A DNA stretch of 64,000 nt from Bilabrum cf. latius (taxonomy: Eukaryota). The DNA lies in contig OZ237755.1 in the NCBI GenBank assembly GCA_965178125.1, forward strand, positions 186,001 to 250,000, given 5' to 3'. Each line of letters opens with the position of its first letter. The first letter of the stretch is position 1. Of the stretch, positions 1 to 63,992 are shown piece after piece. The position numbers and the translations under genes were made by a program. A model generated the notes under the pieces. That model did no database searches, was not told the DNA's origin, and saw only the letters and a program-made list of their open reading frames with translations.

Positions 1-2
1 AG

Positions 3-2084
3 AATGGCTTGGATCCGCTGTTGGGCGCAAGGAACCGTTTGTTGCGAGGCGTACTCGGCACTCTAGGGTTTCCCACCCCTCACGAGCTGTACAGAGGCTA
101 TGACAAGCTGCCTATGAATCGATCGTACCTCGCCTAGTACATGCAATCGAACCGAATATCGCTGGCAGACAACCAAGGGGAAGCTTGGCTCGCATTCAAC
201 TCGAGGGTATCGGTCGGGAAAGGGTCCCTTGGGTCAGTCGTGGTCGATCTGCGGCCGCTCGGTAACGCGTAGCGCGATTTCCAAATCATTCTTGGGTCCC
301 TCAAGCGCGGGCTTGCCGAGTTGCAGCGCGGCGGTCGCCTCGTGGTCGTGTCGTCCGGCGCACCAGGCTCGCCGGCAGGTGCGCTGGGAGACACCTGGAC
401 GGCAGCGGTGCACGGGGCGGTTCTGAGCCTGCACTAGGAAGTCGGCAAGCATGGGATTGGCATCAATCACGTGGTTGACGCCGGGGGGGCAGCACCATTC
501 CCGGAGGAGAGCGACTCGGAAGGCCAGGAGGAGGAGGAGGAGAGCGATGGGGGGAGCGAGGAGGAGGAGGGGAGCGATGAGGAGGGCGATGATAAGGGCG
601 AGGAGGGCGCCGCTGCCGCTGACGAGCGACTCGAAGGCGTGGACAGCAATGAGGGTGAGGGCAGCGGTGCGGGCGGCATGCAGGCGCGCGTGGATCTCAA
701 CCTAAAGTTCGACTCGATGCCGCTGGATGACAACGTGTGGGAGGCCGCTGCCTTCTTGGCCTCGCCCGCATCTGCGTTCGTCACGGGCCAGCAGCTTGTG
801 GTGAACGCCGACCGAAGCAATGGCTGGGCAGGTGGTGATGTGGGCTATGAGTCAGAGGATGGCGTTGACGCGCTGCAGTATTCAACAGCGGCCCACCGAC
901 TGCTGCGAAGGTCTGCCATCAGAGCAGAGGTGATGCTGGCGAAGGAGATGTAGGGTGAGACAGAGGGCAGAGGGGTTACCCCATACGGCCGCGAGCAAGA
1001 CTGGCTCAAGAAGAGTGACGAAATTGGTGCTGCGATCGAACGCATGAAGGGCCAGCTGCATGAGATGGGAGGTACGAACAAGACCGACATCACGGCTCCC
1101 ACTCTGCGCCCACAGGAGGGAAGCATTGCACTCGTCACGGGGGCCGCCAGGGGAATCGGCCGTGCGATCGCCCACCGGCTCGCCACTGAGGGCGCCATTG
1201 TGCTGTGCGTGGACGTGCCAGGGAACACGGAGGAGCTGAGCAAAGTGGCGGCCGAGGTAGGGGGGCTGGGCCTCGCCCTCGACATCACCCGGGACGACGC
1301 CCCCGGTGTGCTGCGCAGGGCAGTGGCGGAGTTTTCGTCCCCTCTGCGGAATGGCTTGGCCATGGACCACTCCGAGCCTTTCATGCGTGTTGCCAGGGGC
1401 GAGGACGCCGGGGCCGACCCGTGGGAGTCGCCGAGGCGGTCCGCGAGTGAGATCCTCGAGCTGCCAGAGTCCCGCGGCGCGATGGTGGACGAGTCCGACC
1501 TGGCCTCCTACTCGACCGACACTAACAAGCTGGTCACGTCGGCAGAGGGCGGGCTTGACGTTTTGGTGCACAACGCAGGTGTGACGAGGGACCGATCCCT
1601 GGGGAACATGTCCGAGGCGGAGGCGCGGGCGGTCTTCGCAGTCAACCTGGAGGCGATCCTTCGGATCGAGGAGGAGATCGGGGCTCGACAGCTGGTGGAC
1701 GGGAGCGGCGCCCCGGTGCTGGCGGATGGGGCTCGGGTGGTACTCCTGTCAAGCATCGTGGGTCGCGCGGGGGCCGTCGGGCAGTGCGCGTACGCGGCAA
1801 CGAAGAACGCCGTGGCGGCCTACGCGAGCGAGATGGGGCTCAAGAAAGCTGTGGCCGACTTGGGAGCGACGGTGAATGCGGTTGCTCCAGGATTCATCGA
1901 GACAGACATGACCCAAAAAATCCCAGTGGTGGGACGGGAGGTTGCCCGGAGGATGAGCTCGTTCCGGTAGGGGGGCTTGCCGTGGGATGTGGCGAGTGCC
2001 GTGGGGTTCCTCTGCTCACCGGAAGCGGTCGGAGTAAGCGGCTAGACTCTGCGGGTGTGCGGCGGGCACATGATCGGCAGGTGA
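3..2084 (+). CDS. FabG4-like high-molecular-weight short-chain dehydrogenase/3-ketoacyl reductase (5' end probably outside window; 6 in-frame TAG)
   Basis: Frame +3 is open from 3 to TGA 2082-2084 except for TAG at 135, 270, 435, 951, 1968 and 2043. SDR motifs: ALVTGAARGIGRAIA, LDVLVHNAGVTRD, LLSSIVG, YAATK, NAVAPGFIETDMT. The C-terminus 'RRMSSFR*GGLPWDVA...FLCSPEAVGVSG*TLRVCGGHMIGR' resembles FabG4-type tails. The N-terminal half carries a degenerate SDR-like segment (GGRLVVV, FLASPASAFVTGQQLVV). Confidence 0.8.
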
Positions 2085-2270
2085 TCGAAACAACGAAGAT
2101 AAACTCGGAATTGTACGAGCACCGGTGTCACGACCACATGTTGTATAGCCAAAGAAGTGCATAGTTTGCAACTTTATATCCAGATCCAAGATTCCAGATC
2201 CGAGTCCAGGCAACTAGATCGTCCCATCATATCAGCTCGGATATCTGGAAGCAACTCCCGTGCCACTCGC

Positions 2271-4286
2271 TCACTCGATGATGAACTCATCCACCCCCGA
2301 GGCACGATCCATGCCCAGCCGCAGGGCCGTGCCCTCTGCATCCGCGGCGCCCTCCACCTCCAGCCCCCCGAGGGCATCCACGCATTCGAACCGCACAGTG
2401 ATGGGGAAGAAGAGATCCGCGTCGTCTCCGGGGGCGGTGAACACCATGTTGCCGCTGGCGTTGTCGGCCCCCACCGCCCCGATCGTCCACACCAGCGCGT
2501 CCTCCGAGGGCGAATGCTGCCACACGCCGTCGCAGTTGGACACCTAGGGGGCCTGCCCACCCGCGCCCTGCAGCGGGATCATCACCTGCACGTTCCGCAG
2601 CCCCCCGGGCGCCCGCGCCCCCGACTGGAACTCCCAGTCCACCGACACCTCGCTGCTGCCCTCCCCTTCATCCGCCCAGCAAGTCAGTAGGATGGGCACG
2701 TCCTCGGCTCGCTTGCTCTCGTACTTCCACCGCAACAGGCTCGCCGGGCGGCCCACGGGCATGGCCTTCTTGGGGACGAGCTGCTGGGCCGCGGCGAAGG
2801 CGTCCTTGTCCAGGTTGGGGTGCGTGGTGAACTGCACCCCCTGCTGCAGGGGCCCGCGGATCGTCTGCAGGCGCAAGGTGGCTGCTTCTGGCACCTGGCA
2901 CGTGACGCTGAGCGTGCCTTTGACCTGGAAACGGCTGCAGCCCCCGTCCCTGTCCATCCGCACCAGCATCTTCTCCTTGATGCTGGCCACCACCTGGTTG
3001 GCAGCTGCCGCAGCTGCCGCCCGCTTGGCAGCCTCCACAGCGTCCTCTGCCCCGCCCGCCGCGGACCCTGCCCCGCCCGCCGCACCCCCCGCGCCCGTCA
3101 TCGCGTCGGGCAGACGCACCCCCTCCTGCGCCAGCGCTTCCATGGCCGCCGCGGACATTCCCCCGTCCCCTGCCCCCATGCCCATGCCGGCCCCCGCGCC
3201 AGCCCTGCCTCCCCCTCCCAGTTTCTTGGAGCCCAGCCTGGTGCCTTTGCGCGCCCCCCCTCCCAAAGAGCTCGAGCCACCCCTTCCTCCGCTCGAGGAG
3301 GGCGCCCCGCCTGCTCCTACGCCCACAGCGGAGGACCCCCCCCCCTCCAATGCCGCCGTACGAGGCCCCCAACGAGCTAGAGCCCACGCCCGTGTCCGGC
3401 CGCGCATCCGAGGTGCCGGTGCGGGGCAGGCTAGGCATCTCCGTGCTGGCGCTGTGGGAGCCCACGCCCCCGTACTTGCCCGGCGTGGGCCCCTGCCCCT
3501 GCCCCCTCCTCCGGGCCACCTCCTCGGCGTGCTCGGCCGCGCGCACTGCCGCCTCCTCCTCCTGCTGCTTGCGGATGCGGATGGCTGTCTCCTCCTCGTG
3601 GGAGTACATTTCCAGGTACTCGGCCAGCTCCGGCATGGAGAGATGCTCGGCGTGCCCCCCTGCGGCCACGGCCTCGTCCATGGCAAAGATGATGGAGAAG
3701 GCGAACTCCTTCACGCTCTCCTCCGTCAGGCCGTCCTCGTACGACGAGCCGTACTGGAGCACAACCTTGCTAAGCAAAGACAGAGTTTCCAAATCATCCA
3801 CGATATTCGACCCCTTGTTCGTCGTCAGAACCAAGTAAACGTCGTCGAACGGATGAAACAAGAACCGGATCGAGTCCGTCTCAACGTACGTGTGCTGCTT
3901 GCCCTTGGTGGATGTCACCAGCTTTGAGAAAGCAGATAGAAGGCCTTCAATCTTCATTTTGGACATGGAAACGAACTGCCGGCTCATAAGAACTGCGACG
4001 GGCGACAGCGTGGGTGGCGGTCAGGTCGGACTGAGTGGTTGGGCCGGACCGGACGACTAACTGGGCTCTCGACGCCAAAAACAATTTACTCACCCCTACC
4101 ACGCGATTTAGATATCACCGAGGCAGCTAGAACAACCTGCGGTCGCTTGATAAGCACATTAAGATTGGCATCGTGCGTCGAGCAATATCCGGCAACGTGT
4201 TGCCGCGGTACCCAACTAGCAATCCGCTAGGACCCTAAAACCAGCGATTTATCGATAGAATTGAAGCAACGCGTATGCCTTACCAT
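2271..4286 (-). CDS. ARCN1: Coatomer subunit delta (delta-COP); exons 4284-4286, 4094-4136, 2271-3992; 1 TAG; apparent frameshift at C10 run 3336-3345
   Basis: The spliced N-terminus [41 protein letters not shown]...QHTYVETDSIRF...TNKGSNIVDDLETL is the delta-COP longin domain. The mu-homology domain follows (FTTHPNLDK, LLRWK, VPILLTCW, FFPITVRF). TAG at 2544 joins ORFs 2544..3686 and 2271..2543. Ends TGA. Confidence 0.9.
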
Positions 4287-4445
4287 GGTTGCAGGGTTTA
4301 ATGGTTTGCAATCCTGCGAAATCACGCAGGAGCGCTTCAGATGTTTGTAGCGAACAGTTAAACCCAAACTCTGTATTGAGATGATCGGATCATCGCTGAG
4401 GACCAGCAGGATGTGTTTCACGTTAAGTATCGGAAATTATCAATA

Positions 4446-5826
4446 ATGGTGAGGGCTGCAGCCACTTTTCGCTGTTTTGTGTCTAAATGTGTGTTTCAGC
4501 TCGCTGTGTTGTCAATATTGGCCGGTAGAGAGCCGCACAGGTAGCGCCTGTGACGTGCGATCGTTTTGTTGCCGTGTTTCCTATCTTATTATCGGCCTTC
4601 CGTCCACAACACCTTTTGAATCGCAGGCGGCTGCTCGTCCTATCGTGAACGTGTACAAGGCTTCCGGTGAGGAGGCGGAGGCCTCGACTCAGGTCGAGCT
4701 CCCCGCTGTGCTCGCGGCCCCCATCCGCCAGGACATTGTGCACTTCGTGCACACGCACATGGCCAAGAACGCCCGTCAGGCATACGCTGTGAGCAAGGAT
4801 GCCGGCCACCAGACCTCCGCCGAGTCTTGGGGAACCGGCCGTGCCGTTTCGCGTATCCCTCGCGTGCCCGGCAGCGGTACCCACCGCTCCGGCCAGGGTG
4901 CCTTCGGCAACATGTGCCGTGGTGGCCGCATGTTCGCTCCCACCAAGACGTGGCGCAAGTGGCACCGCAAGATCAACGTGAACCAGCGCCGGTACGCCGT
5001 TTCCTCGGCCCTGGCCGCGTCCGCTGTGCCCGGCCTGGTGATGGCTCGCGGCCACCGGATCGAAGACGTGTACGAGGTGCCCTGCGTGGTGGAGGCCGAG
5101 GGCGTGAGCAAGACCAAGCAGGCCATCGCGCTGCTCGAGGCCGTGGGCGCTGGCGCCGACCTCGACAACGTGAAGGAGTCGCGCGCCGTGCGCTCCGGCA
5201 AGGGCAAGGCCCGCAACAGGCGCTTCGTGCAGCGCCGCGGCCCCCTCGTCGTGTACGGTGACGAGGGCAAGGCCATCGAGCAGGCCTTCCGGGTGCTGCC
5301 CGGCGTGGAGGTGTGCCACGTGTCTCGCCTGAATCTGCTGCAGCTGGCCCCCGGCGGGCACATGGGCCGCTTCTGCGTGTGGACCAAGAGCGCCTTTGAG
5401 CAGCTCGACTCGATCTGGGGCGGCAACGGCAAGGCCTCGGCCAAGACCCACAACGGGCGCACCTACCGCCTGCCCGCGTCTGCCATGAGCAACGCGGACC
5501 TGGCCAAGGTGATCAACAGCGCCGGCATCCAGGGCCACAAGGACGTGCGCCCCAAGAGCGAGGCCTCCCACCGCGTCACCGCCAAGCGCGGCAACGCCCT
5601 GCGGAACCGGGCCCTGCGCCTCAAGCTGGACCCCTTCGCCGACGCCCGCCGCGAGGCCACCACCAAGGCCCAGGCCGCCGCCGCCGCCGCCAACCGCCAG
5701 AAGAAGCGCGATGCCAAGCGCCGCGCCGCCTCGCTGGCCTTCTTCGACCGCCTGCAGTCCGACGAGTGGAAGGGCGACTCCGTGGCCGAGACCTACACCG
5801 CCACCTACGGCAAGCCCCAGGTGTGA
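4446..5826 (+). CDS. RPL4: 60S ribosomal protein L4 (uL4); exons 4446-4448, 4627-5826
   Basis: ATG|gtgagg...tcgcag|GCG gives MAAARPIVNVY. Contains AESWGTGRAVSRIPRV, GAFGNMCRGGRMFAPTKTWRKWH and LNLLQLAPGGH. No TAG; ends TGA. Confidence 0.97.
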
Positions 5827-6117
5827 AGAGTCTCCGGCTCTCTCCCTGTGCTGACCGCGCCTCCTCGTGCCTGACTGGGAGGAGGGGCTCGGGCGGACTG
5901 CCAGCCAATGAGTGCGATGGCATTTGAGGGCGCCGCGCTTTTCGCCGAGTGCGGGCTCGCATGTGCTGCGTTGCTATCGAAACGGCTTTCTGTCTGATAC
6001 AATATAAGTAGCCACCACCGTAGTAATGCTCCTAGTTGTATGAAGCACTTGCCACCGAAATCCAACTCTTCCGGGTTTCGCTAGAAGACCACACGGCATC
6101 ACACTAGAGCTCGTGCA

Positions 6118-6566
6118 ATGGCCCAAAGCAAGAATCCTAAGGATGCTGTGTCATGCGTCACTTGCCTAAATTCCATCATTTTCTGTATTGGTGAGAGTGT
6201 ACTTTGCTACACCAGCAAGCAGGCTAAGCAGTGAAGCTTCACTGCTTCAGACGCAATACAACCTAGCAGCGCAGGTCCGTCCAATCAGTTCCACGAATTC
6301 TGGAAAAATGGGCATTTTACGGCATGCTCTGACAAGTTCAAAGAGCTGGCGACGTGTGCGAAAATCAAGACGAGCTCGGATGAAGACGCACAAGTGAGAG
6401 AATCGCACCAGGCCTTGCCACCAGTCGCCACCCTCCGAGGATACGATAATTTTCAACATTATATTGGCTGTTTGCGCAGAAGATGGTCGCTGAACTGGCA
6501 AAACCTACCCCATCACCGACGATCGGCCACATTTGGGAGGAACGGAAACAGCCGCCGACAGGATGA
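6118..6566 (+). CDS. DUF3128 / Emi1-like small Cys-containing protein (92 aa); exons 6118-6190, 6275-6393, 6480-6566
   Basis: Not in the ORF track; assembled from two GT-AG introns: MAQSKNPKDAVSCVTCLNSIIFCIGPSNQFHEFWKNGHFTACSDKFKELATCAKIKTSSDEDAQKMVAELAKPTPSPTIGHIWEERKQPPTG*. Cys spacing and the C-terminal 'IWEERKQPP' match my recollection of DUF3128. Confidence 0.7.
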
Positions 6567-7249
6567 GAGGATGTATTGCCCTGTTTGGAATAAAGTGCAT
6601 TTTATCGTTCAGCAGCATAACCTTGCCAGCGGAAACTGTCGAATCTATCCATAGCGAGGGCAGCTGCACTGATAGGGGGCAAAGGGGCTGATCTGCAGGT
6701 GCGCAGCAGGGAAGCAAGGCACCCTTGCTCGCCCCCAGCTGGAGCCGCATCGCCTGCTGCAGATGATCTATGCTCGCTTTGGTGCAGTGAAGTCGCTATG
6801 CCCTTGCGCAGCCACGGGGCAGCGCATTTGAGTGCTGCATGATTCACACCGTACTTCAAAGCGGTGTGCTGGGAGGCTTGTTGTGCCAACAGTGTTGGTG
6901 GCATGCCAGCGGAACGACACATGATGGTAAGGACGGGCAGGAGTGGACCCAATTGCACCCACCTTCGGCCACCGCTAAGCGGGTGGGAGCCCCGCAGATA
7001 GGCAGCTACGGGTCGGCGATCGTGCTGCAGCGTGAGGAGGCGACGTTGGTGTTCGGGTCCAAGCACAGCTTAAGCATGATCCTATAGAGAGAATTGTGAT
7101 GCTTGAGATTGCTGTGCCTTGTTGGAGTGCAGCGAAGACTGAGCTTATAATGCCTCACCAAGTGTATGGTCGATCGGAGTACCCGCGGACAACCCGGACT
7201 CTAGAATCTCGCATCAATCAAAGGTTGGCGACGTTTTTGTTCTGGCGCA

Positions 7250-8740
7250 ATGTCGAGCTGGTTTACATCACCAAAGGCTCAGCTGTCTAGAGCAGAAAAA
7301 GAGCGAGCTGCACTTGAGCAAGACAGACGTCTTGTTGGTGCTGACCGCGTGGATGAGATGGGACGAGGTGGCCGATATTTCGTAGTTGATAAGCCCGACG
7401 GATCTCAAGCGCACGTACTTGGAGTCGTGCCAGGTTCTAGCGTGTCTGAACGCGACCTTGATGCGTTGCTAGAGTTCGTATAGCCGAAGGAGGTATACGT
7501 AGATCTGAACAACTCAGAGCTAGACTTGTTACGAGACATGTATGGAAGCAATAGAACTATGCTGCAATCCAGAGAACTCGGTTTTAGTCTGGTTGGGCAG
7601 CATTGGATGGAATGGGGCCTGCTTGCGGCCTGTCAGATTCAGTTGCAGCACAACCAGCGCCAAGTCTTCCGCATGTGCGGACTGGATCCCGACTAGATCT
7701 GGAAAAAGGTACTCGAGACTTGCAATAGCGATAGAGACGATGCACCAAGACTTTCAGCAAACGGTGTTGACCTCAGAGAAACGTTTAACGAGTGGGACAT
7801 GGCGGCCGAGCGAGTGGGAGGCTACCAGTTCATCCCGGAAGGCCACTACGAGCCGACGGGGCCCCCCGCCGACATGCAGTTCACGCACTCGCTTGTTATG
7901 CGCGTGCGCTCAGATGCTATGGTGGAGGACGCGCGAAAGGAAGCCGCTTCGCTGTCCATTTCGGCGGGCGACCAGGGCCAGCTTGGCACCGACACGCTCG
8001 ACGAGTTCACTCGGCAGATGCGCAGGAAGCTGGACCTGTACACGCTGCAGTGCACTGCAGAAACGGAGGACGTGGAAGCGCGACTCAGCAAGATGCTGCA
8101 GCAGGCCGACAAGGAGGTAGCCGCGATCCTGAAGAGGGAGGAGGCGAGGGCGGGAGGGCAGGGGGTGGATGCAGAGGGCAAGCCCGCTGAGGGGCAGGCG
8201 GCGGAGCAGGCGCAGACGCAGGATGCCGCGAAGAAGTACGAATTAGCGCAGGTGGCTGGGCTAGCCATGCGACAGGTGGACGGAATGGACAGGCAGATGC
8301 GCGTGGCGGCAGGCATGGTGCAGCAGGCGGACGGCCCTGTGGTTGCGCTGGTGCAGATGCCCAGGGTGCAGCCGCTGCTCGCACGCTGGCACCAGCCGGG
8401 GGCGCTCCGGGAGCAGATGCCCGAGCGCAGCATTGGGACGTGGGCTGCCACTGTGGTGGCGCCCCCTACGGTGCTCGGCGGTCTGGCCCTCGGCCTGACT
8501 CAGCTCACCCGGGTGGTAGCACACCGCACGAAGTGGGGGGGCAGGATACTGGGAGGCACGCTGCTTCTAGGAAGTGCGCTCATCGTCGGGTCGGGCGCGA
8601 TGAATTTTGCCATGACGGTTAACCACTCCTCAACTGTGGGCCCGTTCATGCTCTCGGCATTGCAGCGACCTGTCCCCCCACTCGGGCAGACACTAAAGTC
8701 GCTGGGCGTCAGGAGGGGCGGCTCAAATCGGTCTGAGTAA
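7250..8740 (+). CDS. TraB-domain-like protein with C-terminal hydrophobic segments (2 TAG)
   Basis: One frame, with TAG at 7481 and 7694; ends TAA. 'AHVLGVVPGSSVSERDLDALLEFV*PKEVYVDL' resembles the TraB/TRABD N-terminal motif (VYLVGTAH..S...V...I..VQPDVVVVEL). Two hydrophobic stretches lie near the C-terminus. Confidence 0.55.
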
Positions 8741-8923
8741 GCCTTGGGGACCCTGCTTTGTCTAATTGTATTGAACAGTGAATAGCATGGGCCATAATTC
8801 GTTCAGTTTCTTCGCGCGACCATCTTGCGTCTGGCGACCAAACACTTTTTCTGAACCGCGCGAGACGGTGCGCGGTTCCGCTACAACGGACACTGCCCGC
8901 TTGCACAACTGCAAGTCTCTTCA

Positions 8924-11900
8924 ATGAGTCATCGTAGGGTCGTAGATCTCGCTGATGCAAATGGTTGGGTACCAGATGATGATAGTAGCATAACCAGTGG
9001 CATGACAGGCACGACTGGATCGTCGGATACTTGGGTTATTGAGAACGATGGGCATGCACGCGGTGACAAGCACACACGCCATCTCCCTATAGCTGATTTC
9101 TCACCACATGGATACGGCTCAAATACGTCGAAACCAATAGCACTATAGGGCAACGTGCGCGCGAAGGTGAACGCGAGCGGGCTGGCCGGGGCGCTGCTGG
9201 GGTCCGGCGGGGACGGTGCGTTCCGGGGCAGCACGGAGGCGCGAGACACGGCGGAGGCGATGCGTCGTGCGGCAGAGGCGAGCAAGCGGGACGGGGACGT
9301 GGGGGCGGGCGGGGGCCGGGGGCTGAGCGCGGCGGAGCTGGCGAAGCTGGGGCACGGGTCTGGGTCTGGCGTGCTGGCGGTGCCTCGCGGGGCCAAGTTC
9401 GACGGCACGACGGAGGCGCAGGACCGCGGTCGGCAGGGCGTGGGTCGCGGGGGCGTGGGTCGCGGGGGCCGCGGGGGCGAGTCGTTCGGGAAGCCGGCCA
9501 CGGACACGGCGGGGCGCGTGCTGGGCGGTGCGGCGGGCGCGTCTGGAGCTCCCACGCTGGGCCGGCGCGGGGAGGGCGTGGGGGCGTGGGACCCGGAGGA
9601 CGAGGCGGCGGTGGGCCCTCAGGAGGGGCGGTCGGGGGGCGCTCGCGAGCGTGCGCGGGGCATGGTGAACATCGTGGGCGGGCCTGGGTCTCGCATGGTG
9701 GGCGCGCCCGAGTCTCGTCGAGCGGCGGAGCTGGCTCGTCGTGCGCGCGGGGACGGCGTGGGCGGGAAGCCGGCGCTGTCTCGTCCTCGCGGGGGCAACT
9801 CGAGCGCGCGCGTGGTGGGCGGGTCTCGGCTGGGGGCCGTGGCAGGGACTCGTCGTCGCATGGGCGATGGGGAGGACGGGAGCGCTCTGGCCGAGTCGGC
9901 GGATCCACGGGAGCGGGCGGCGCGTACGCGTGACGCGGCGGAGGAGAAGAAGCTGCGGGAGCGTCAGCTGGCGGGGTCCCGTCTGCTGCCTGGGCGCGGT
10001 GGCATGGGCGGGGGCGAGGGGCAGGAGGAGGGGAAGGACCCGTCCGCGTTCGAGACGGAGGCGGGGCGGTCGTTCCGTCGTCGCGGGGGCGCGGGTGCGG
10101 GAGGTGCGGGCGGGCGCGAGGGCAAGCCGGGGGGCAACGTGCGCGCGAAGGTGAACGCGAGCGGGCTGGCCGGGGCGCTGCTGGGGTCCGGCGGGGACGG
10201 TGCGTTCCGGGGCAGCACGGAGGCGCGAGACACGGCGGAGGCGATGCGTCGCGCGGCAGAGGCGAGCAAGCGGGACGGGGACGTGGGGGCCGGCGGGGGC
10301 CGGGGGCTGAGCGCGGCGGAGCTGGCGAAGCTGGGGCACGGGTCTGGGTCTGGCGTGCTGGCGGTGCCTCGCGGGGCCAAGTTCGACGGCACGACGGAGG
10401 CGCAGGACCGCGGTCGGCAGGGCGTGGGTCGCGGGGGCGTGGGTCGCGGGGGCCGCGGGGGCGAGTCGTTCGGGAAGCCGGCCACGGACACGGCGGGGCG
10501 CGTGCTGGGCGGTGCGGCGGGCGCGTCTGGAGCTCCCACGCTGGGCCGGCGCGGGGAGGGCGTGGGGGCGTGGGACCCGGAGGACGAGGCGGCGGTGGGC
10601 CCTCAGGAGGGGCGGTCGGGGGGCGCTCGCGAGCGTGCGCGGGGCATGGTGAACATCGTGGGCGGGCCTGGGTCTCGCATGGTGGGCGCGCCCGAGTCTC
10701 GTCGAGCGGCGGAGCTGGCTCGCCGTGCGCGCGGGGACGGCGTGGGCGGGAAGCCGGCGCTGTCTCGTCCTCGCGGGGGCAACTCGAGCGCGCGCGTGGT
10801 GGGCGGGTCTCGGCTGGGGGCCGTGGCAGGGACTCGTCGGCGCATGGGCGATGGGGAGGACGGGAGCGCTTTGGCCGAGTCAGCGGATCCACGGGAGCGG
10901 GCGGCGCGTGCGCGTGACGCGGCGGAGGAGAAGAAGCTGCGGGAGCGTCAGCTGGCGGGGTCCCGTCTGCTGCCGGGCCGCGGGGGCATGGGCGGGGGCG
11001 AGGGGCAGGAGGAGGGGAAGGACCCGTCCGCGTTCGAGACGGAGGCGGGGCGGTCGTTCCGTCGTCGCGGGGGCGCGGGTGCGGGAGGTGCGGGCGGGCG
11101 CGGGGGCAAGCCGGGGGGCAACGTGCGCGCGAAGGTGAACGCGAGCGGGCTGGCCGGGGCGCTGCTGGGGTCCGGCGGGGACGGTGCGTTCCGGGGCAGC
11201 ACGGAGGCGCGAGACACGGCGGAGGCGATGCGTCGCGCGGCAGAGGCGAGCAAGCGGGACGGGGACGTGGGGGCGGGCGGGGGCCGGGGGCTGAGCGCGG
11301 CGGAGCTGGCGAAGCTGGGGCACGGGTCTGGGTCTGGCGTGCTGGCGGTGCCTCGCGGGGCCAAGTTCGACGGCACGACGGAGGCGCAGGACCGCGGTCG
11401 GCAGGGCGTGGGTCGCGGGGGCGTGGGTCGCGGGGGCCGCGGGGGCGAGTCGTTCGGGAAGCCGGCCACGGACACGGCGGGGCGCGTGCTGGGCGGTGCG
11501 GCGGGCGCGTCTGGAGCTCCCACGCTGGGCCGGCGCGGGGAGGGCGTGGGGGCGTGGGACTCGGAGGACGAGGCGGCGGTGGGCCCTCAGGAGGGGCGGT
11601 CGGGGGGCGCTCGCGAGCGTGCGCGGGGCATGGTGAACATCGTGGGCGGGCCTGGGTCTCGCATGGTGGGCGCGCCCGAGTCTCGTCGAGCGGCGGAGCT
11701 GGCTCGCCGCGCGCGCGGGGACGGCGTGGGCGGGAAGCCGGCGCTGTCTCGTCCTCGCGGGGGCAACTCGAGCGCGCGCGTGGTGGGCGGGTCTCGGCTG
11801 GGGGCCGTGGCAGGGACTCGTCGTCGCATGGGCGATGGGGAGGACGGGAGCGCTTTGGCCGAGTCAGCGGATCCACGGGAGCGGGCGGCGCGTGCGCGTG

Positions 11901-13144
11901 ACGCGGCGGAGGAGAAGAAGCTGCGGGAGCGTCAGCTGGCGGGGTCCCGTCTGCTGCCGGGCCGCGGGGGCATGGGCGGGGGCGAGGGGCAGGAGGAGGG
12001 GAAGGACCCGTCCGCGTTCGAGACGGAGGCGGGGCGGTCGTTCCGTCGTCGCGGGGGCGCGGGTGCGGGAGGTGCGGGCGGGCGCGGGGGCAAGCCGGGG
12101 GGCAACGTGCGCGCGAAGGTGAACGCGAGCGGGCTGGCCGGGGCGCTGCTGGGGTCCGGCGGGGACGGTGCGTTCCGGGGCAGCACGGAGGCGCGAGACA
12201 CGGCGGAGGCGATGCGTCGCGCGGCAGAGGCGAGCAAGCGGGACGGGGATGTGGGGGCGGGCGGGGGCCGGGGGCTGAGCGCGGCGGAGCTGGCGAAGCT
12301 GGGGCACGGGTCTGGGTCTGGCGTGCTGGCGGTGCCTCGCGGGGCCAAGTTCGACGGCACGACGGAGGCGCAGGACCGCGGTCGGCAGGGCGTGGGTCGC
12401 GGGGGCGTGGGTCGCGGGGGCCGCGGGGGCGAGTCGTTCGGGAAGCCGGCCACGGACACGGCGGGGCGCGTGCTGGGCGGTGCGGCGGGCGCGTCTGGAG
12501 CTCCCACGCTGGGCCGGCGCGGGGAGGGCGTGGGGGCGTGGGACCCGGAGGACGAGGCGGCGGTGGGCCCTCAGGAGGGGCGGTCGGGGGGCGCTCGCGA
12601 GCGTGCGCGGGGCATGGTGAACATCGTGGGCGGGCCTGGGTCTCGCATGGTGGGCGCGCCCGAGTCTCGTCGAGCGGCGGAGCTGGCTCGTCGTGCGCGT
12701 GCTGGGGAAAGTGATGGTGGCAGGGGCCGACCGCTGAAGAAGGGTGAGATCGGCCCCGATGGGCAGCCGTTCATGGGAGACACAGAGTACAATCACGAGT
12801 ACACGAAGAAGAGGGGGGGCAAGTCTGGGAGACTCGGTCGATTCGGCGGCGGTGTGGTGCTGGGCACTTCCCTGCCCGGGCCCATGCAGAGGACAACTGC
12901 AGCAAGGCAGGACTACGCCGCCAACGAGGACCCGGATGCCATGATGCTCAACCAGAGGCACAAGTCTTCCTACCCGGTGACCAACCGGCATGCAGGAAGA
13001 CGTGCGGTCCCACTCATGGAGGGGGCGATCCCCAGGCGTGAGCACAGGGCGGAGAGGCGAGACGAGCACATCAAGATCAAGACCATGAGGAGGTCTCAGC
13101 GACTCCAGGCTGCAGGATCGGTTACCAGTCCGCGAGTTCACTGA
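8924..13144 (+). CDS. Hypothetical Gly/Arg/Ala-rich protein (~1406 aa) with 3.6 tandem 328-aa repeats (1 TAG)
   Basis: ORF 8924..9148 and ORF 9155..13144 share a frame and are joined by TAG 9146-9148; ends TGA. Confidence 0.65.
9149..12699 (+). repeat. Near-perfect direct tandem repeat, 984-bp unit, ~3.6 copies (units start 9149, 10133, 11117, 12101)
   Basis: 'ggcaacgtgcgcgcgaaggtgaac' recurs every 984 nt. Only scattered substitutions separate the copies (e.g. RTR/RAR, REG/RGG, DPE/DSE). Confidence 0.97.
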
Positions 13145-13332
13145 TTGATTGAGTCTGCCGTACATGCTTGTTCTAGTTGCTGAAGAAAACGTACTGGAAA
13201 ACCCCAAAGGTACTGATGATCTGTGATTGGCGACAAACATCCATAGTCTACTAGTAGTTGCACTACGAGCTGCAGGAAGATCGGTTCCGCTACCGCGTCG
13301 CAGTTTGGCAGAAAAGCATACTGTGTATCAGC

Positions 13333-15867: not shown

Positions 15868-16015
15868 CTTGGCGGATGGACCTGGTGTACGGTCGCCAGG
15901 GTCTTGAAAGGGGGCAAAGTCACGCAGCCGATGCAAAGTCGGTCGCAGTCGCTGGCGGTGATACGCGAAGTTTGCTGTGCTACACAACATACCATTTTCT
16001 TGCGGACAAGTCAAA

Positions 16016-29083: not shown

Positions 29084-33535
<4,452 letters not shown>

Positions 33536-38432: not shown

Positions 38433-38873
38433 CGAAGATTCTATCTTGGATCGCTCGATCGCCGAGAATTTATCTTCATCCTGCCACGTGCGAAGGCCAT
38501 CCTGCTTTCCGAGTCGCAGCATCCGGGTGTGTTGTGTCATGCCGCACCCACAGATGTCACGCCACGTCACCCGACTAACAGTTCAGCAGTGGTCCCATCC
38601 GCAGTGTAGAAGAAGGCCCCACGAGCGCCTATCTTGCCGTTGGTCGAACCGGATGCGCTCCAAGTCGCCCAGAGGCACTTGCTCGCCCAGAGGCACCTAC
38701 TCGCCCAGCAGTGCAGCGTTGCCGCACCATGTCACGAAATAACAGCCTCAGTGTGGCCCTTGCGAGTCGCATAGTCACACGATCGTACTAGCAAGCCGAA
38801 TGAGGAACCGCAAAAACAGGATTTCAGCGGCGCAAGTGCTGCTAGCATGCCAGTGGTAGTGGTCCTCTGGTCC

Positions 38874-54000: not shown

Positions 54001-54726
54001 CGGGCAAAGTACGCGATGAAGACAACACCCGTGCGACTGGTACACCTCTACCGGAATACCTGTCTTTGTGCGCCGGGTCAATGCACCAAAAACGAGACCA
54101 TGCGCGAGTAAACCGCACATCTCGAAACATATAGACATATGGTCAAACCGAGGCGGCAACGCATCGCGAATTAGAAGGGAATTCTGGGCGCGGGTATGTA
54201 TGTGCTCACCAAAGCTGCGCTGGTCCACCAGCTTTGCTAGCGGCCTAGGCACACCGGTGCTCTCTAGGACTACATCGGAGAAGTCCAGCAGTATTTTCTA
54301 ACTGCTTCCAGCCGATGCTAGCTTCTATCGTTCGACGTACCTCGTCTGTGCCGCGAGCACGCCATGTGCTGAAGCATGCGAGCCCGAGGCGGTCACACTC
54401 GAGCCCGACGGAAGTCGCGTAGGAGCAGCTGTGACTGACCCACTATGCTGTGAAGAAATATCACTGGGTGAGGCACTGCTCCTGGGACTGCCCTAGCCGC
54501 GTGAACTGGCGATAGTTGGAGCCTCCTGCGGTACCGTGGGCATCGCATCCAGCCCTACCAGGGTATCGCTGTGCCTCAACGGGTGTCGTTGTTGCCTGCG
54601 TTCATGTGTAACCTATCTTTGAGCCTCCATTGCGAAATACTCCGCAGTATCTGTTGGGCACACGGAGAAAATCTGGGCGATTCCGATGCAATCGTCGCAC
54701 TTTCCGCGGATTTCCCCGGACTCCAT
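51089..54726 (-). CDS. Hypothetical protein; probable exons 54060-54726, 51089-53988; ~8 TAG
   Basis: ORFs 52220..53800 and 51293..52174 are joined by TAG in one frame, ending TGA at 51089. A 71-nt GT-AG intron (53989-54059) links an upstream TAG-containing frame. No family recognised. Confidence 0.5.
53453..53516 (-). repeat. (GGCGGT)n microsatellite encoding poly-Gly
   Basis: About 10 tandem ccgcca units on the + strand, within the hypothetical CDS. Confidence 0.85.
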
Positions 54727-55832: not shown

Positions 55833-56089
55833 AGTTGAGAAAGTAGCAATATACAGCCGGGTTGAGGTTTGTGGTTGCTTTGGCGGGCCTGATCCGATCT
55901 TGCGAACGTTCGACAGAACCTGTATCAACTGCACCCATTTTGAATGGTTCAAACGAAGCAAACAATGATGTAACCCTGTCTTGTTTTTGCATGCATCACT
56001 ATCACATTGTGTTACGCGTGATATGTCGATCCGTACGGTCTAGGGGGAGAAGGGTGCTTTCCAGCTCGGCCAGGTAGCCACTCCAAGCC

Positions 56090-59000
56090 ATGCTGCAAGA
56101 CGTGGCAACAGAAGAGCTTTCCAATGCACTGGGCTACATGTCAAACGGTTGCTAGGCGCAACATGAGGCCCGTGATGAGCAGCAAGTCACACCCTTGCTG
56201 AGAGCCGCAATAGCTTGCAAGGTATGTTTGGAACCAACTTCTACTAACAACGAAACTCTGCAGGAAGCTTACAAGGCAATTAACTTCACCGGCAAATCAA
56301 TGAAGTGTTTTGCATCCCACGGCTTGCTTCTGATTGCTGCCGCTGAAGTACTCGAAGGGAGGCTGCTGACCGAAGGACTGCATCGGGCAGGGTGGGAAGC
56401 AGCTCGCGGAATTCTCCCGGCCCTCCGGGTATCCAGAGAGCACGGCCTATCTTCATCAGTCGCAGATTAGGATGTACCTCCTCTCCACACCGTTGCTGCA
56501 TCCCCAGTTGCGGCTGCCGTTGCTGCGGGAGAGGCCCTTGCCCGGCTCGCCTGGAGCCACGATGCGCTTGCATCGTTCGGGGCAAGCTCATTCTCAGATC
56601 GGCGGCCCGCGCCTGGCATACCAAGGGGCGGCATTAGGAGTGCCACATAGGCCATCACATCGGCAGCTCTAGATCTTGCCCAGATTGCCACTGCATCTGC
56701 GCAATTTTGCAGCAGCGGTGCTGCTTCCATCGGGCCTGCCGTGCCCACGCTGTGCCTCCACCTGCAGACAGGAATGGAGCTTACTGAAAACCTGGCGCGC
56801 GATATCCTGAAGGGGGCGCCTCGGGATGGCCTCGGCGGAGCCGCCCTGCCAGAGGGGGAGGGGTGGGGGCTGGTCCCGCGCGAGACGGGGGAGCACAGGG
56901 GCACTCGACCCTAGCAAGCCATTGATGTCATCCCTCCTCCTCCTTCTCCTTCTCCTTCACCACCTCCGCCTGCAACAGCGCCCTTGGTGCCTGTGCCCGA
57001 CTCGGAGCTAGACACCTTGCGGTCTGGGCTGCGTGCCATGCGACTCGGCGGGGCGGATGCTGCCCTGGCTGCAGCGTCAGCGGCACGACGCGCGGCAGGT
57101 GGCCCAGCCTCAGTGGAATCACCCGATGGTGCCTTGGCAGCTAGGGGCGCAGGGGAAGCCGCGGTCCTCGGCGCTGCTGCCTCTCGGCTCTGCCTGACTT
57201 GCCTGGTCTCTGCTGGCGTGGGTGCGCAAGGAGATCGGGAGCGCCGTTCGGTCGGGGCGGCATCGTCGAAGGCCGAGCACTGGCAGGGTGGATTGGCCGA
57301 CGCGGGGGAAGAGGAAGTCGCCAGTCTGCACGAGGGCCTCTGGAGCAGCTTGGTGGCTGGTACCCGGGCACTCGAGAGCTAGCTGGACCCGCTCCCACAC
57401 GACGTTGACGTTGCCTCGAGCATCTCGCTCGACGATTCTGCGCTTGCCCTGCAGTCCGCTTTGTCCATGCTGCGCACCCTGCATCGCACGAGCGAGAGTA
57501 GAATATCAGAGAGCACAAATTCCCGAGCGGGGAAAGCAGCGAATCGGATGGCAGGGACCGGCCGTGGCGCTGCGAAGATGCTAGCAGCCTGTGCCCGGTC
57601 TATCGGTGCCATGGGTCCGCCCATGGTGCAGGCCGGCTTGCCCGGCATCCGGTCCGCCTGCATGGGCGGTCTGGAGGAAGCGCGGGAGACACTGGAACTG
57701 CTTGCCGCTGCTGATGCGAATGCTAGCAGGGGCGGCGATGAGGATGGCTGGAAGGAGGCCTGGCAGGAGCTCGCGCGAGCCTCGTGGCTGCTGCTGGATG
57801 CCGTTGCGTGCTCTGACCTGGCGCCGGAGGCAGGCCAACCCGCTGAAACTGGCAGTGGTGTTGCCGCTCAACGTAGTGCCAACGGATGGCAGTCAATGGG
57901 TCTTTATGCTCTTGCTCGCTGCACAGGGCTAGCAGCAGATGTGGCAGTGGCTTGCAGGAGACAGTCGAGTGGGGTCGAGCCGTCAGTTCATGCGGCAAGA
58001 GGTGCTCCCGATAGTTTCAGGCAGTGGCTGCCAGCGCATGTCCTGGCCAACACTACGCTGGGTGTGAGGAGCGGTGCTGCTGAGCACGCAGCAAACGATC
58101 ACACTAGCAGCCTTGATGCGGCTGCATTCCTGGCCCTGTCGAGGTGCATGGAGGCTCGCAGTGGTCAGGAGGTCGATGCATCGAGTGCTTCTCGTGAGAT
58201 CGTGTCGGGGCTGCTCGAGACGGAGATGACCGTGCAGCGCTTCTGGCGATAGTGGACACGAGCAGGAGCCGCCGCACAGGACGCCTCACCGCATCCATCG
58301 CATCGTTCTGAAGAGGCAGAGCAGGCCCGGTCCGGAGACTTTCACTTCCACAGCAGTCAACCTGATCAGGTGAGTCCACTGGGGCGGCAGAGGGCCATGA
58401 GAATGGACGCGCTGGAAAGTGCCCGGCGTAAGCTGGAGCCATGGACGAGAGCCGCAGACGTGCTATTTTCCCGAGCTGCAGCGGGGCAGGCGGCCCGTGC
58501 AGCCAAGAGAGCCGGAATGCACCGAGGCAGCGCCTCATGGGGACGACTCGATCAGGTGGACGGCGGGGATCTCTCTGCCCCCGGTGCCGCATAGGCAGAG
58601 GTAGATACGAAGGTAGGACGGGAGCTCAGTCTTATCTTGGCTCAAGAGGGCGAGCGCGCTGCAGCGCAGGCCCACCGGAGAGGAGAACCTCCCAGCAGCC
58701 GGGCAAGCACCCTCGCCGACCCGACTCTGGGGCTGGCTGAGGCTGCAGACGTGCTTCTGCGGTCCGGTAGAAGGATTCTCGGGTCACCTGAGAGCACTCC
58801 AGGCGTCGAGGATGCTGCTGTGTCGTATCCTGCAGTGTCTAGAGCCGCCCGCCGCGCGGCCTCAAGACTGGTGGCAGGGATGCGCAGGTCCGGGCTGGCA
58901 GCGGCGGGGAGCAGGGCCAGCGGGGGCGTGCACGTCGGACCTATGCCCACGGGATTAATCGCTAGATCTAGCGAGGAGGACTCGTCTAGAGCTCTCAGTG

Positions 59001-59839
59001 AAGCGGGTGACCAGCAGGTTGAGGTGGAGATGAAAGGGCTTCAGCCCGCTGTGGTCGCTGCTCCGATGCATCCACGAGGGGTCGCTTCGTTTGACTGCAT
59101 TGCATTGCACCGCATGAACGACTTGGTGATGCCGATGCTGCAGCTGCTGCAGATGCAGATGCACGAAACCAGCGAGGGTCCCAGGAGGCAGAGTGTGGCT
59201 GTACCTGAGACGGCTGACGACCTTGGCCCGCTCGCTCTGTGCGCCGCGCCGCTTGCGGGGGCTGTGTATACTGCGGTGGTAGAGACCGGCGAGTTGGCGG
59301 CATCTGCTGCTGAGTGGGCGAGCAGCGGGTCCGGACGGTGTGACGAGCTGGCCGAGGCAGCAGCTGGTCTAGCCGACGGTGTCTTGGTGAGCAGGTCGGC
59401 GCAACGGGCGCTTGGGTTGGGGGCGATCGAGGGTAGTGATGGTGATAGGGGTGCAGGCAGGGGTGGTAGTGGGGCTGGGGCTGGAGGATCCGGAGGGTGG
59501 GACGGGAAGCGGGGCCGAGCGGTGCTGGACGCTGCCATGCTTGAGGCCGGCGTGCTGGCTGGGGGTGCGGCGGAGCTTGAGGCAGCAGGGGGCGAGGCTG
59601 CCATGCGCTGTGTGGCGGCCTTGGAAGTGCTGGCGCAGGCAGCAGTTGGGGCGCTGCGGGCCGAGGTTGGGGCGTTTGGGGAGGGCGAGGGCGGCGGGTC
59701 GCGAGGTGGCAGGCCCGCTGGTGCAGGTGCGGTGCAGAGGGCGGTGCGGTCGTGTCGGTGCATCGCTCGGCTGTGCAAAGCGGTCGGGGCGGACTGCAGG
59801 TAGCTGGAGATGGAGTTGGTGCACCTACGGCGAGGGTGA
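56090..59839 (+). CDS. Hypothetical Ala/Leu-rich, probably alpha-helical protein (~1249 aa; 8 TAG)
   Basis: ORF fragments 56195, 56984, 57461, 58370 and 58637 all lie in frame +2, separated only by TAG. ATG 56090; TGA 59837-59839. Confidence 0.6.
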
Positions 59840-59997: not shown

Positions 59998-62900
59998 ATG
60001 ATGAATCGTGTTTAGTCGGTGCGGTGAATTGGATGGCTCGTATGAGGGCCTCACTGCTGCGTTAAACAACTGTGCAAGCACACTGTCTTTACATGTCTTC
60101 GATTCCTTGTGAGACGTTTACAGCCGGCAGTCTGAATGTGCACCATGTATCTCTTGCCGCAACTTGTATCTGCACTTTCTCTCTTCGTCTTGCTGCTGCA
60201 GCCTCCGGCCCCAGGCGGCCGGAGCTTAAGCTGTCATTGCGAGCTTACCCCCTCAAGAGATCTGACAAAGGGCATTGGGAGCAGCTTGATGCTGGAGACA
60301 AACTCATACTACCGCCTGCAGCATTTCAAGAGGCTGCACGGATTCGCCTCCCCATGTCCAAGGGCGTTGTACTCAGGGTGTAGAACGAGCGCAACAAGAC
60401 TAGAGGCGCGATACCGGGCCGGGACGGGAAAATTGCTGAAACTATCCAGCAGTACGCGGGTGTGTACGAGTTCAGCGCACCAGAAGGCACTTGCTACATT
60501 CCCGCTCCAGTCATGCACAACGTAGGGCTCCGCGCTGGTTCCAAGGTGCTGCTCACCTCGGTGAAGAACCCTCCCAAAGGCCAATTCGCGAAGTTTCAGC
60601 CGGACAGCACCGCCTTCATCGACCTTGCCGCAGCCTTTGGCCCCAGGGAGCTCATGGAGCAGGCCATGAAGCACTACTCGGTTCTTTCCAAAGGCCAGGT
60701 CCTTGACGTGCGAGCAGCAGGGGAGGCGCATCGCCTGACCGTGCTCGAGGTGAAGCCGGGCAAGTGCGTGTCCCTGTACGGCGACCTGGACCTGGAGGTG
60801 GACTTTGCACCTCCCAAGGACATGCCGGAGCAGGGCGGCATGCGGAGGAGGAGGCCGTCTTCGGCGCGGGGAGCAGCCCCTGCCAGTGTCGGTGCCCCCA
60901 GTGGTGGCGGTGCTGATGGTGCGGCAAGGTCTGGGGAAGGGCCCGGCGACGACTAGATCTAGTAGCGCAAGGCCAGCGGGCCAGGCAAGATCACTGGCGC
61001 AAGCAGTGCCAGTGGACCGAAGGACGCAGCCGCTGCAGGTGCATCGCATGGGGGTGCACATGGGGGCGATGATGACCAGGCTAAAGCGGCACCAGACCCG
61101 TTCGCCGGCCCTGCCCGGTCGGTAGGGGCGAGAACAGACCCCAAGACTGGGCTCACAGCTGTGGACAGTCGCGGTCGGAAGCACACGAGCCTTGCAGTCA
61201 CCAAAGATGCAGCAAGGCTGCGTGAGCTCGCCTTGGAGAGGAAGAGGAGAGCCGCCTCGCTGAGGCGGAGAGCGGCTGCAGCCAACAACAGCAATCCCAA
61301 GGTTGGCGGAGACACGCAGGGTGCTGGTAGCGGCGGCCTGTTTGACGATGGACCAGGGCAGGGGAGTGCGCGAGAAGGCAGTGCGACAGGTCTTCAAGAT
61401 GCGCCGCTCGTCGGTCGAAGAGTGGGCGAACCGCCAGCCTCAAGCGCAGCACGGGTCGACGGTTGTGAATCGGACGCTCGCGCCCGCGAGATGCACGCAA
61501 CCTTGTCCCAGCTGAGAAACCTACGGATCAGGCGGAAAGGGACACCCACACCGGCTCTGCCCAGCGAGTCGGGCGCTCTCAGCAGCATGGCCCTGGGGGC
61601 ACTCAGGGAACAACTGGCTAGCCTCGGGGCAGCAGTACAGTCCATGCCGCAGCCGCACTCGCCCGCCAACCCTGCCTGGGTCCGCGGCCAGCTCCGCATG
61701 CGGGTCCTGCAGAAGCGCGCTGCCATGCTGCAGAAACATCTGGATGCAACTCCGGTCACGTTCGAAGCGCGTGTGAGGGGAGGCGCGTCTGCAGCCGGCA
61801 GAGATGCAGCGGCAGGCGTGGGCGTGGCTGCGATGCCGGGGGCGAGCCAGGCCCGGGTGCGAGGTGGGGGCCACAGCGCAGCCGCAGAGTCCCTCCAGGA
61901 CATGGAGCAGGATGCGAATGGAGCTGGCATGCTGGGCTCGACTGCTGCGAGGGGCAAGACAGTGCATGTGGCACGGTACAGTGGCAACAGCGACGAGGGT
62001 GCGCCGACGCTGGCTGCTGCGCGCGCTGCGCAGGCCGCGATGGTTGACCCGTTCGCGAGAAGGTCTGGGCCAGGGAACAAGGGTGGGTCGGGGTGGGGCC
62101 TGCTTGGAGCGGGGAACAACGACCGGCAGGAGGAGAGTCTCTCGAGTGGCGCGGAGCTCCGGCAGCTCGCGACTCGGCTCGTCACAAGGCATCATGAGGG
62201 CTCAGGGTACCAAGCGGTGGCGACCTCGAGCAGCACATTACCATCGGCGCCGGCACAAAGCCCGTTCCGCGCCCGTCCACAGAGCGGCCGCAGGGTCGGT
62301 GCGAGCACGCAAGGCACAGGTAGCAAGAGCACAAACATGAGCATGCAACAGCGGGGGTCACCAGCTGGCCGGGCCGCAGGGCCGCGCTCCGTGGACACCG
62401 GCGTGCCTCGTCCCCGATTGCAGCATCAGTACCGTGGATCCGTCAGCCACGGTGGAATGGGGGCCGCAGCTGGAGCACTGAACAGCGAGTCTCCCGGGGA
62501 TGCATCGGCAGACATGTGGGGTGACCCCGGGGAGGCCGAGCTGGCAGAGCGGGTGTACGCGCGCGTGAAGGCGACCAAGGACGTGATCTGGGCTGCCAGC
62601 GAGGCGGGCATGCAGCTGGATGGATCCACTGCGGCACAGAGCGCCCTGCTGGCAGCGGCCATCGAGGCGTCCTTGCGGACACCGCCGCACCACAGGGGGC
62701 AAACGGGTGCGTCATCCGGAACGGGCGGCCGGGCGGGCGGGCCTGCTAGTCGTGGCGGAAGCAGCAGCAGGGCTGAGCGTGTACGGGGGAGGGCCAGCGG
62801 GCCGTCCCCGTCTGGGGGTCGCCTGTAGAGGGGGGCTGTTGGGAGGGGGGCAGGGGCTGGGGGTGAAGTTCGTCGCGATCTGGGCGGACGGCATGACTAG

Positions 62901-63992
62901 GGTGGTGCGTCGTCGCGGGAACGGGGAACCGGTGCAATCGATCGGTCAGGTGGGGGCGGGTTCATGGCCCGTTTGGCTGCTGGCCGGGCCCGTGGGCAGG
63001 CAAAGCTAGGGTCGAGGCCTGGGTCTGCCAAGAGCTAGAGCAAGGGACCAAGTGTCCCGGTTCATGTCCCTGGTTCGCGCAAAAGGGGCACGGGGAGGGA
63101 AAGGCGAGCAGGAGGAAACAGACCGATTTCGCTGGGGATCCAGGGAACAGGGGCCAGCGCAGCTCTGGCAGGTGGCTCACCTAGGGAACACGAGGCGGAT
63201 GAGAGCAGTCCCACTGCGGTGATGGCCCGGCGTGCGGGCGGTGGGGGCACTGGATCGGCGCTTAGACGAACTGGTTCAGGACGAGGATCTAGGCAGAGCC
63301 AGCAGCACCAGCAGGGGGACAGGAGCAGATAGCGGGTTGCAGCACCGGCTTGGCGGGACCGAGCACCTGCAGCTGGTGCCAGTCGGGACTCGCTGGGAAC
63401 TGGCTCTTCTTCACTTACCGGCGCTCGGGGGCCGCGACGCAGCCGACCCCCCAGCGGGGGCAGGACTCCAATTGGGGGCAGGTCGAGACCGCAGACTCCG
63501 CAAGGGGAGGACAGGGCGCTGCAGGCCGCGCTGCTGGCCAGCATCGGTGGTGGGGGTAGGAGCGGGGCTGTTGCACTCAGTCCTCCTACTCCTACTACTA
63601 GTGGCACCGCAACTGTTGCTGGCGTGGCGCGTGAGTACACCTCGTCTGCTGCAGCTGCACCCGGGGCAGATGCGGAAGATGCCATGCTGCAGGCCGCGCT
63701 GCGGGAATCGCTCGCTTCGGGTTAGGCAGGGAGCGACGGTGTGCCCGGGGGCGATGGGGGCGGCTAGAGGACTGCCGGTGGGGCTCAGCAGAATAGGGGC
63801 GCTAGAGAGGGAGGGAGGGGCCCTCCGGTGCGCACTGGCAGGGCTGGGGCGAGAACGGTTCCGTCGCAAAGAGGAGCAGGTGCACTGCATGTAGGCGCAG
63901 GCTCACGGTCGGGGCTGGGGCTGGGGCGAAGCGGCACGCTCGCAAGTCGCAGAGGACTTGGGAGAGGCTCCGGGAAAGAATCTAGCTCGTAA
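59998..63992 (+). CDS. UFD1-domain protein with SHP-like box and UIM-like motifs (5' exon structure uncertain; ~10 TAG)
   Basis: UFD1 N-domain: LDAGDKLILPPAAF..PM..VLRV*N..YAGVYEFSAPEGTCYIP..M....L..G..V......PKGQFAKFQP..F......RELMEQAMKHYSVLSKG..LTVLEVKP..CVSLY..DLEVDFAPP. Frame +3 is open from ~60200 to TAA 63990-63992 except for TAG. Later motifs: DPFAGPARSVG, EDRALQAALLASI and EDAMLQAALRESL. Confidence 0.75.

Follow-up and report, generated by a model that had tools for sequence, protein, structure and literature searches.

Changes of the nuclear genetic code are rare, and a change of UAG without UAA is rarer still. Reports on the fornicate Iotanema spirale, the ciliate Protocruzia tuzeti and two lines of phyllopharyngean ciliates describe UAG alone as reassigned to glutamine, UAA and UGA still being terminators (PMC5304391, PMC11687900; the papers cited in this paragraph are used in excerpt). 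The common code in which UAA and UAG both mean glutamine (UAR=Gln, NCBI translation table 6) is recorded for many ciliates, some ulvophytes, hexamitids, Streblomastix and Amoeboaphelidium protococcarum (PMC11687900, PMC5304391, PMC6299283). UAG by itself has become serine in the green alga Scotinosphaera (PMC8271138) and leucine in the rhizarian exLh (PMC5304391), and a code of the table 15 type is used by crAss-like and Lak phages (PMC9523058). Here we describe a 64-kb stretch of DNA from Bilabrum cf. latius (contig OZ237755.1, positions 186,001 to 250,000; hereafter the window), which is very probably nuclear DNA of a GC-rich, intron-poor eukaryote that reads UAG as glutamine and uses UAA and UGA as its sole terminators, the pattern of NCBI translation table 15. 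The reassignment of UAG is real, and the type of code is itself already known from that table. The window shares this code with Iotanema, Protocruzia and the phyllopharyngean lines, but differs from them as a 64-kb multi-gene contig of 64% GC with spliceosomal introns and a gene for a MICU-like protein. With the table 6 lineages it has UAG=Gln in common, whereas UAA is a stop in the window only. Scotinosphaera and exLh, like the window, have UAG alone reassigned and UAA and UGA as stops, but the residue differs (serine and leucine instead of glutamine). The phages likewise read TAG as glutamine, but theirs are phage genomes in bacteria, whereas the window is eukaryotic, with introns and polyadenylated mRNA.

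The first evidence comes from the reading frames. The window has 59-74% GC per 4-kb bin over its 64 kb and holds 634 TGA, 408 TAG and 143 TAA triplets. The longest stop-to-stop frame grows from 1331 codons under the standard code to 4423 codons when TAG is read as sense. With TAA as sense this picture is unchanged, and with TGA as sense many frames are lengthened because TGA is the commonest stop triplet in the window. Eighteen gene frames were delimited with the help of Pfam matches, frame length and RNA contigs; together they amount to 17,868 codons or 53.6 kb (about 84% of the window). These contain 96 in-frame TAG codons and not a single TAA or TGA, against about 110 TAG, 33 TAA and 277 TGA expected from the densities in the remaining two reading frames. 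TAG thus occurs in frame at about its off-frame density and is unconstrained there, in virtually all of the long genes, while TAA and TGA are excluded. The zero for TAA and TGA holds partly by construction, the frames being bounded by these triplets, and 53.6 kb of frames free of both in 64 kb cannot arise by chance. Thirteen of the genes end in TGA and five, RPL24 counted, in TAA. With no in-frame UGA where so many were expected and with 13 genes ending in it, UGA is not a sense codon within the window. Nor is UAA: with TAA read as sense, the real genes gain tails of just 2-37 codons and none of the coding frames is fused to another. TAG accounts for 11.8% of the in-frame glutamine-type codons (576 CAG, 145 CAA and 96 TAG). 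The 18 gene frames are as follows.

3 to 2084, plus strand: two-domain FabG4-like short-chain dehydrogenase (SDR; Pfam adh_short_C2, 8e-39), its 5' end lying beyond the window; six TAG, with first bases at 135, 270, 435, 951, 1968 and 2043; ends TGA.
2271 to 3987, minus strand: delta-COP (PDB coatomer delta, 8.8e-29); one TAG, at 2544-2546; ends TGA.
4630 to 5826, plus strand: main exon of ribosomal protein uL4 (RPL4; Pfam Ribosomal_L4; PDB uL4, 3.5e-132); no TAG; ends TGA.
7166 to 8740, plus strand: gene without a Pfam family match; three TAG; ends TAA.
8924 to 13144, plus strand: Gly/Arg/Ala-rich protein, known from its translation; one TAG; ends TGA.
13333 to 15867, plus strand: secreted family-3 glycoside hydrolase (GH3), with three Pfam GH3 domains spanning the protein; four TAG, at 13531, 14497, 14695 and 15694; ends TGA.
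16016 to 29221, minus strand: giant low-complexity protein, 4401 aa from the first ATG; 29 TAG; ends TAA.
29084 to 33535, plus strand: low-complexity protein of 1483 aa; 17 TAG; ends TGA.
33912 to 35588, plus strand: MICU-like EF-hand protein of mitochondrial calcium uptake (Pfam EF-hand; homologues named 'calcium uptake protein'); five TAG downstream of the frame's first ATG; ends TGA.
36053 to 37117, plus strand: main exon of the RAD1 checkpoint clamp subunit (Pfam Rad1, 6.4e-23, from profile position 51 on); no TAG; ends TGA.
37284 to 38570, minus strand: BNR/sialidase-like protein (Pfam BNR_2, 3.3e-20); no TAG; ends TGA.
38874 to 40277, minus strand: GT34 glycosyltransferase (Pfam Glyco_transf_34, 4.6e-13); one TAG; ends TGA.
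41496 to 41900, minus strand: main exon, by its translation, of what we take to be ribosomal protein eL24 (RPL24), a family name given from sequence motifs and not from a search; no TAG; ends in ...GRKGGK-TAA, with the stop at 41496-41498.
42628 to 44856, plus strand: gene of a family not recognised; two TAG; ends TGA.
46198 to 50187, minus strand: condensin II subunit CAP-H2 (Pfam CNDH2_C, 4.6e-24); three TAG; ends TAA.
51089 to 54130, minus strand: gene of a family not recognised; four TAG; ends TGA.
55835 to 59839, plus strand: gene of a family not recognised; ten TAG; ends TGA.
60072 to 63992, plus strand: UFD1 N-domain protein with a long disordered tail (Pfam UFD1_N1 and UFD1_N2; PDB UFD1, 3.4e-19); ten TAG; ends TAA.

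These counts bear out most of what an earlier interpretation made from the letters alone, the sequence-only reading, had put forward. It had estimated about 100 in-frame TAG codons in about 17 genes, with no internal TAA or TGA and every gene ending in TGA or TAA, and had given the end of RPL24 as it was found here. Its further statement that TAG interrupts conserved genes stands for delta-COP, CAP-H2 and the MICU-like gene, but not for the RAD1 and RPL24 main exons, which have none; the main exons of RPL4 and of the BNR gene are also free of TAG in the present models. One gene had been named RLP24, which we take instead to be eL24. The central claim of that reading, UAG as glutamine with UAA and UGA as stops, gains support from the frame counts and from the homologue columns, orthologue pair and family models described next.

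Alignment with homologues puts UAG at glutamine positions. In the SDR, all 120 homologues have Q opposite the TAG at residue 656. Opposite the TAG at residue 681 the counts, out of 120, are Q 58, R 27, E 10 and N 8, and opposite that at residue 145, 103 of the 120 have K. Facing the TAG at residue 455 of the GH3 protein, Q is the commonest residue among 150 GH3 representatives (33 of 99 non-gap rows), and the two closest homologues both have it. Homology also continues past the codon: with TAG treated as sense, the GH3 protein matches Pfam over all three of its domains, PDB alignments in which TAG is written as X carry on beyond the TAGs, and domain homology runs through TAG in the SDR, in the UFD1 N-domain and in delta-COP as well. 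The SDR frame closes with TGA at the C-terminal end of its homologues. The TAG sites of the MICU-like protein fall in unconserved stretches and are uninformative, although one faces Q in Cafeteria.

An independent comparison is offered by a metagenome contig (L001; 3876 nt, 56% GC) that carries at 868-3450 an orthologue of the GH3 gene, 68% identical and ending in TGA, with 10 in-frame TAG and neither TAA nor TGA. Judged from this contig, a second, related organism shares the UAG trait; the more distant loci L002-L004 have no in-frame TAG. The pair has 14 TAG sites in all; opposite them stand Q at seven, A at two and S, R, G, D and L at one each, and E at none. The chance of Q at 7 of 14 sites is about 2e-6, taking Q as 5% of residues. 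When tblastn is used in place of the global alignment, four instead of five of the L001 TAG sites face Q and two face gaps. Of 43 ordinary Q positions in the same pair, 24 are conserved, and since TAG is matched by Q at 7 of its 14 sites it behaves like Q; ordinary E is aligned to Q at only 1 of 36. In family hidden Markov models (HMMs) made from homologues, the residues summed over 20 TAG sites rank as Q +22.2, K +18.4, E +10.6, R +9.2, S +5.7 and L -8.1 bits. Serine and leucine are disfavoured as meanings of UAG: each is the partner at 1 of the 14 sites, and in the family HMMs serine lies 16.5 bits and leucine 30 bits below Q. Similarly, when TAG was read as Q, E, K, L or S in the two GH3 genes, the Pfam bit scores disfavoured L and S only. 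As an observation apart, the L001 protein has a 15-residue insertion relative to the window protein, and its gene is lower in GC (56%) yet richer in TAG (10 vs 4).

The same codons are found in transcripts. Twenty-four public runs contain the window sequence whole or in part, and four of them were aligned to window positions 1-20000. Run X3 is DNA-like, with a flat depth of about 83 and a single contig over 1-9177. Runs X5 and X6 are RNA-like, with depth changing in steps gene by gene (RPL4 at 3224 and 539, the SDR at 9 and 3, respectively), and in X5 the depth falls to zero between delta-COP and RPL4. A loose end of 25 A in X5 at 5999, 173 nt past the RPL4 stop, places a poly(A) site at about 5999. 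The RNA-like runs show CT..AC joints for the minus strand and, at 6189/6274 and 6393/6480, GT..AG joints that are absent from X3. At least 15 of the 20 TAG codons in positions 1-20000 lie under the X5 contigs listed, with no differing letter and no gap; the remaining five lie outside the X5 pieces listed, which is not in itself a finding, and the evidence consists of contigs, not raw reads. X5 contigs without differences cover 591-2145 (SDR), 13334-16007 (GH3) and 16274-20000 (giant protein), and all four GH3 TAG sites fall within one contig of 2674 nt. The gene at 7166 to 8740 is likewise covered without differences, by an X5 contig at 7219-8119 and an X6 contig at 7217-8124. No differing letter is listed for X3, X5 or X6 across 1-20000, and all are colinear with the window. 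Since the RNA-like and DNA contigs agree and have no gaps, editing, assembly error and hidden introns are excluded at the TAG sites covered, and at these sites TAG is present in mRNA. The metatranscriptome X24, with a small share of the window, covers the RPL4 area only, with differences in the pieces listed, and is uninformative on TAG.

By analogy, UAG would be decoded by a tRNA-Gln whose CUA anticodon is unable to read UAA, and eRF1 would no longer recognise UAG; we infer both components because they are established for other UAG-only reassignments in the excerpted part of PMC11687900. No eRF1 gene is present in the 64-kb window. Each independent case of this kind tests how a stop codon can be captured, the ideas in question including a tRNA(CUA) without access to UAA, an eRF1 losing UAG, and GC pressure; in its high GC the genome here contrasts with most of the ciliates concerned. 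With both genome and transcriptome data available, such an organism would be a usable model for stop-codon capture, the more so if it is in culture.

Several observations weigh against the table 15 reading and have to be set beside the evidence above. In the family HMMs lysine trails Q by just 3.8 bits, and under the broad Pfam models Q, E and K are indistinguishable (summed bits 632.8, 631.3 and 633.8). The UFD1 TAG is aligned to Thr in human and yeast, and the coatomer delta chain that matches best has Val opposite the delta-COP TAG. The 64-kb window has no tRNA gene and no Rfam hit, and thus none of the decoding components is seen in it. The automatic label of X5 is 'RNA? (probably DNA)', and depth, poly(A) and splicing are our grounds for treating it as RNA. 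The statement that UAG never terminates is partly circular, the frames having been read through TAG. Finally, a protein fragment from a public assembly (P0196), 87% identical to the giant protein, has Glu facing both of the TAG sites that it spans (22726-22728 and 22174-22176, residues 2187 and 2371). This last point is one ground for taking UAG as a codon for glutamate, or for glutamine and glutamate both, as none of the 10 ordinary Q in the same alignment faces Glu; one GH3 TAG also faces Glu in two PDB homologues, and E and Q score equally in Pfam for the window GH3. Such a meaning is nevertheless very unlikely given the invariant Q column of the SDR, the L001 pair, in which none of the 14 TAG sites has Glu opposite it and 7 have Gln, and the family HMMs, in which E lies 11.6 bits under Q across the 20 sites. 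GAG and TAG are one change apart, and we read the two P0196 sites as probable one-base replacements between Glu and Gln in a fast-evolving disordered protein, which would account for both.

Whether UAG also ends some genes while encoding glutamine within others, as in the context-dependent code of Condylostoma, bears directly on the circularity just mentioned, because the ends of the 18 genes were defined by reading through TAG. Yet none of the 18 needs TAG as its terminator, a count that shares this circularity, and the SDR reaches TGA at the homologous end. In four genes a TAG stands 12 to 22 codons upstream of the stop, and the absence of any depletion of TAG near gene ends gives no sign of a position-dependent code, which leaves us with little belief in this alternative. 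Still less probable is that the window follows the common table 6 code with UAA made scarce by high GC. UAR=Gln is reported in several lineages in the excerpt of PMC11687900, and UAA is indeed the rarest stop triplet in the window (143 vs 408 TAG), but about 33 in-frame TAA would be expected and none is found beside 145 CAA and 96 TAG; in particular, no TAA stands at a glutamine column in any of the 18 frames. TAA moreover ends five genes, RPL24 among them, and as sense yields short tails only. The least probable account is an artefact, whether of assembly errors, editing of UAG to CAG in RNA, unrecognised introns or pseudogenes. The window does have one likely assembly error, a single base in the C-run at 3336, but the contigs of X3, X5 and X6 have the same letters at every TAG site covered and are colinear without gaps, the independent contig L001 has 10 in-frame TAG in its orthologue, and 96 TAG with zero TAA and TGA are unlike pseudogenes. 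We retain glutamine as the meaning of UAG, with UAA and UGA as the terminators.

The position of the organism is less firmly fixed. The closest named homologues of the MICU-like protein are a EukProt record and Cafeteria roenbergensis, and in a single-gene tree of 23 rows the window protein and a 94% relative stand beside Cafeteria with support of 95/95, a tree that comes with warnings on long branches and composition. This weakly suggests a grouping with the stramenopile Cafeteria. The sequence-only reading had called the genome SAR/stramenopile-like; the place next to Cafeteria weakly supports this. The best-scoring chains for RPL4 belong to what we take to be plant ribosomes, and the worst to what we take to be ciliates (Tetrahymena lowest) and Plasmodium. 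A sequence search of Atlas with RPL4 gave a taxonomic label no finer than 'Eukaryota'. Taken together, the contig, the introns, the MICU-like gene and the RPL4 scores make a ciliate with gene-sized chromosomes or an anaerobic fornicate unlikely.

Two other candidates were rejected. A green alga with UAG=Ser was considered for the nearness of RPL4 to the presumed plant chains, and serine is disfavoured by the L001 pair and the HMMs. The aphelid Amoeboaphelidium, which also has a changed code, was considered because algal runs contain window sequence. Its genomes have about 40% GC (PMC10608142, Table 1) against 64% here, and UAR, not UAG alone, is reassigned there. A full-text literature search, with most subscription journals outside its reach, returned no report of UAG=Gln for a stramenopile-like or other GC-rich non-ciliate lineage, only those for Iotanema and ciliates. 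We regard as evenly balanced the proposal that this is an independent change of UAG to glutamine, with UAA and UGA as stops, that defines an unreported clade of GC-rich stramenopile-like protists with at least two members, 32% apart in one protein, and that would be the first outside ciliates and metamonads.

Relatives of this organism may already be present in public collections in broken form. The giant protein has relatives that are 87% and 81% identical, and four fragments from public assemblies (P0123, P0196, P0197 and P0200), 81-96% identical to window proteins, begin or end at a TAG or CAG of the window; P0200 ends directly before a window CAG codon. When metagenomes were scanned with a segment of the giant protein, no relative turned up. 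Such ends suggest close relatives with the same code whose genes were annotated under the standard code. A standard-code annotation of the Bilabrum genome would break most of its long genes in the same way, and fragments of this kind from relatives are already deposited.

Runs X1-X7 hold sequence without differences from the window and are filed under three organism codes in three studies, which may reflect co-culture, contamination or differing names. Small shares of window sequence are also found in algal and protist metagenomes. Judged by its genome and transcriptome runs, the organism appears to be in culture.

The use of TAG varies among the genes. The ribosomal protein genes RPL4 and RPL24 have none, RPL4 using 16 CAG, 0 CAA and 0 TAG, and in the long disordered proteins TAG makes up 13-20% of the glutamine-type codons. 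Genes with high expression may avoid TAG, although the sample is small. RPL4 has a 3' UTR of about 173 nt (5827-5999), with neither AATAAA nor TGTAA noticed directly upstream of the poly(A) site.

Some further features concern individual genes. The nearest named homologues of the SDR are all bacterial, with at most 54% identity over the C-terminal domain and no close eukaryotic match among those listed; the FabG4-like reductase may therefore be a gene of bacterial origin. Upstream of delta-COP on the minus strand lie introns at 3993-4093 and about 4135-4281, with CT..AC joints in X6. The delta-COP frame itself is split at a C-run (3336-3345), where the window has one more base, at 3336, than the X3 contig of the DNA run. 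When this base is omitted, as in X3, the two frames join into one open reading frame of 571 aa, and the extra base is probably a homopolymer error of the assembly. The gene at 7166 to 8740 has spliced exons upstream, with introns at 6190-6273 and 6394-6479 and GT..AG joints. In the Gly/Arg/Ala-rich protein at 8924 to 13144, a unit of about 328 codons (about 984 nt) occurs about four times almost unchanged, and off-frame open reading frames repeat every 984 nt. Short-read contigs fragment in these repeats, where the X3 depth reaches up to about 450. Within the coding frame at 29084 to 33535 lies a perfect (TGGCAC)x37.7 microsatellite (29839-30064), which encodes a long Gly-Thr dipeptide run.

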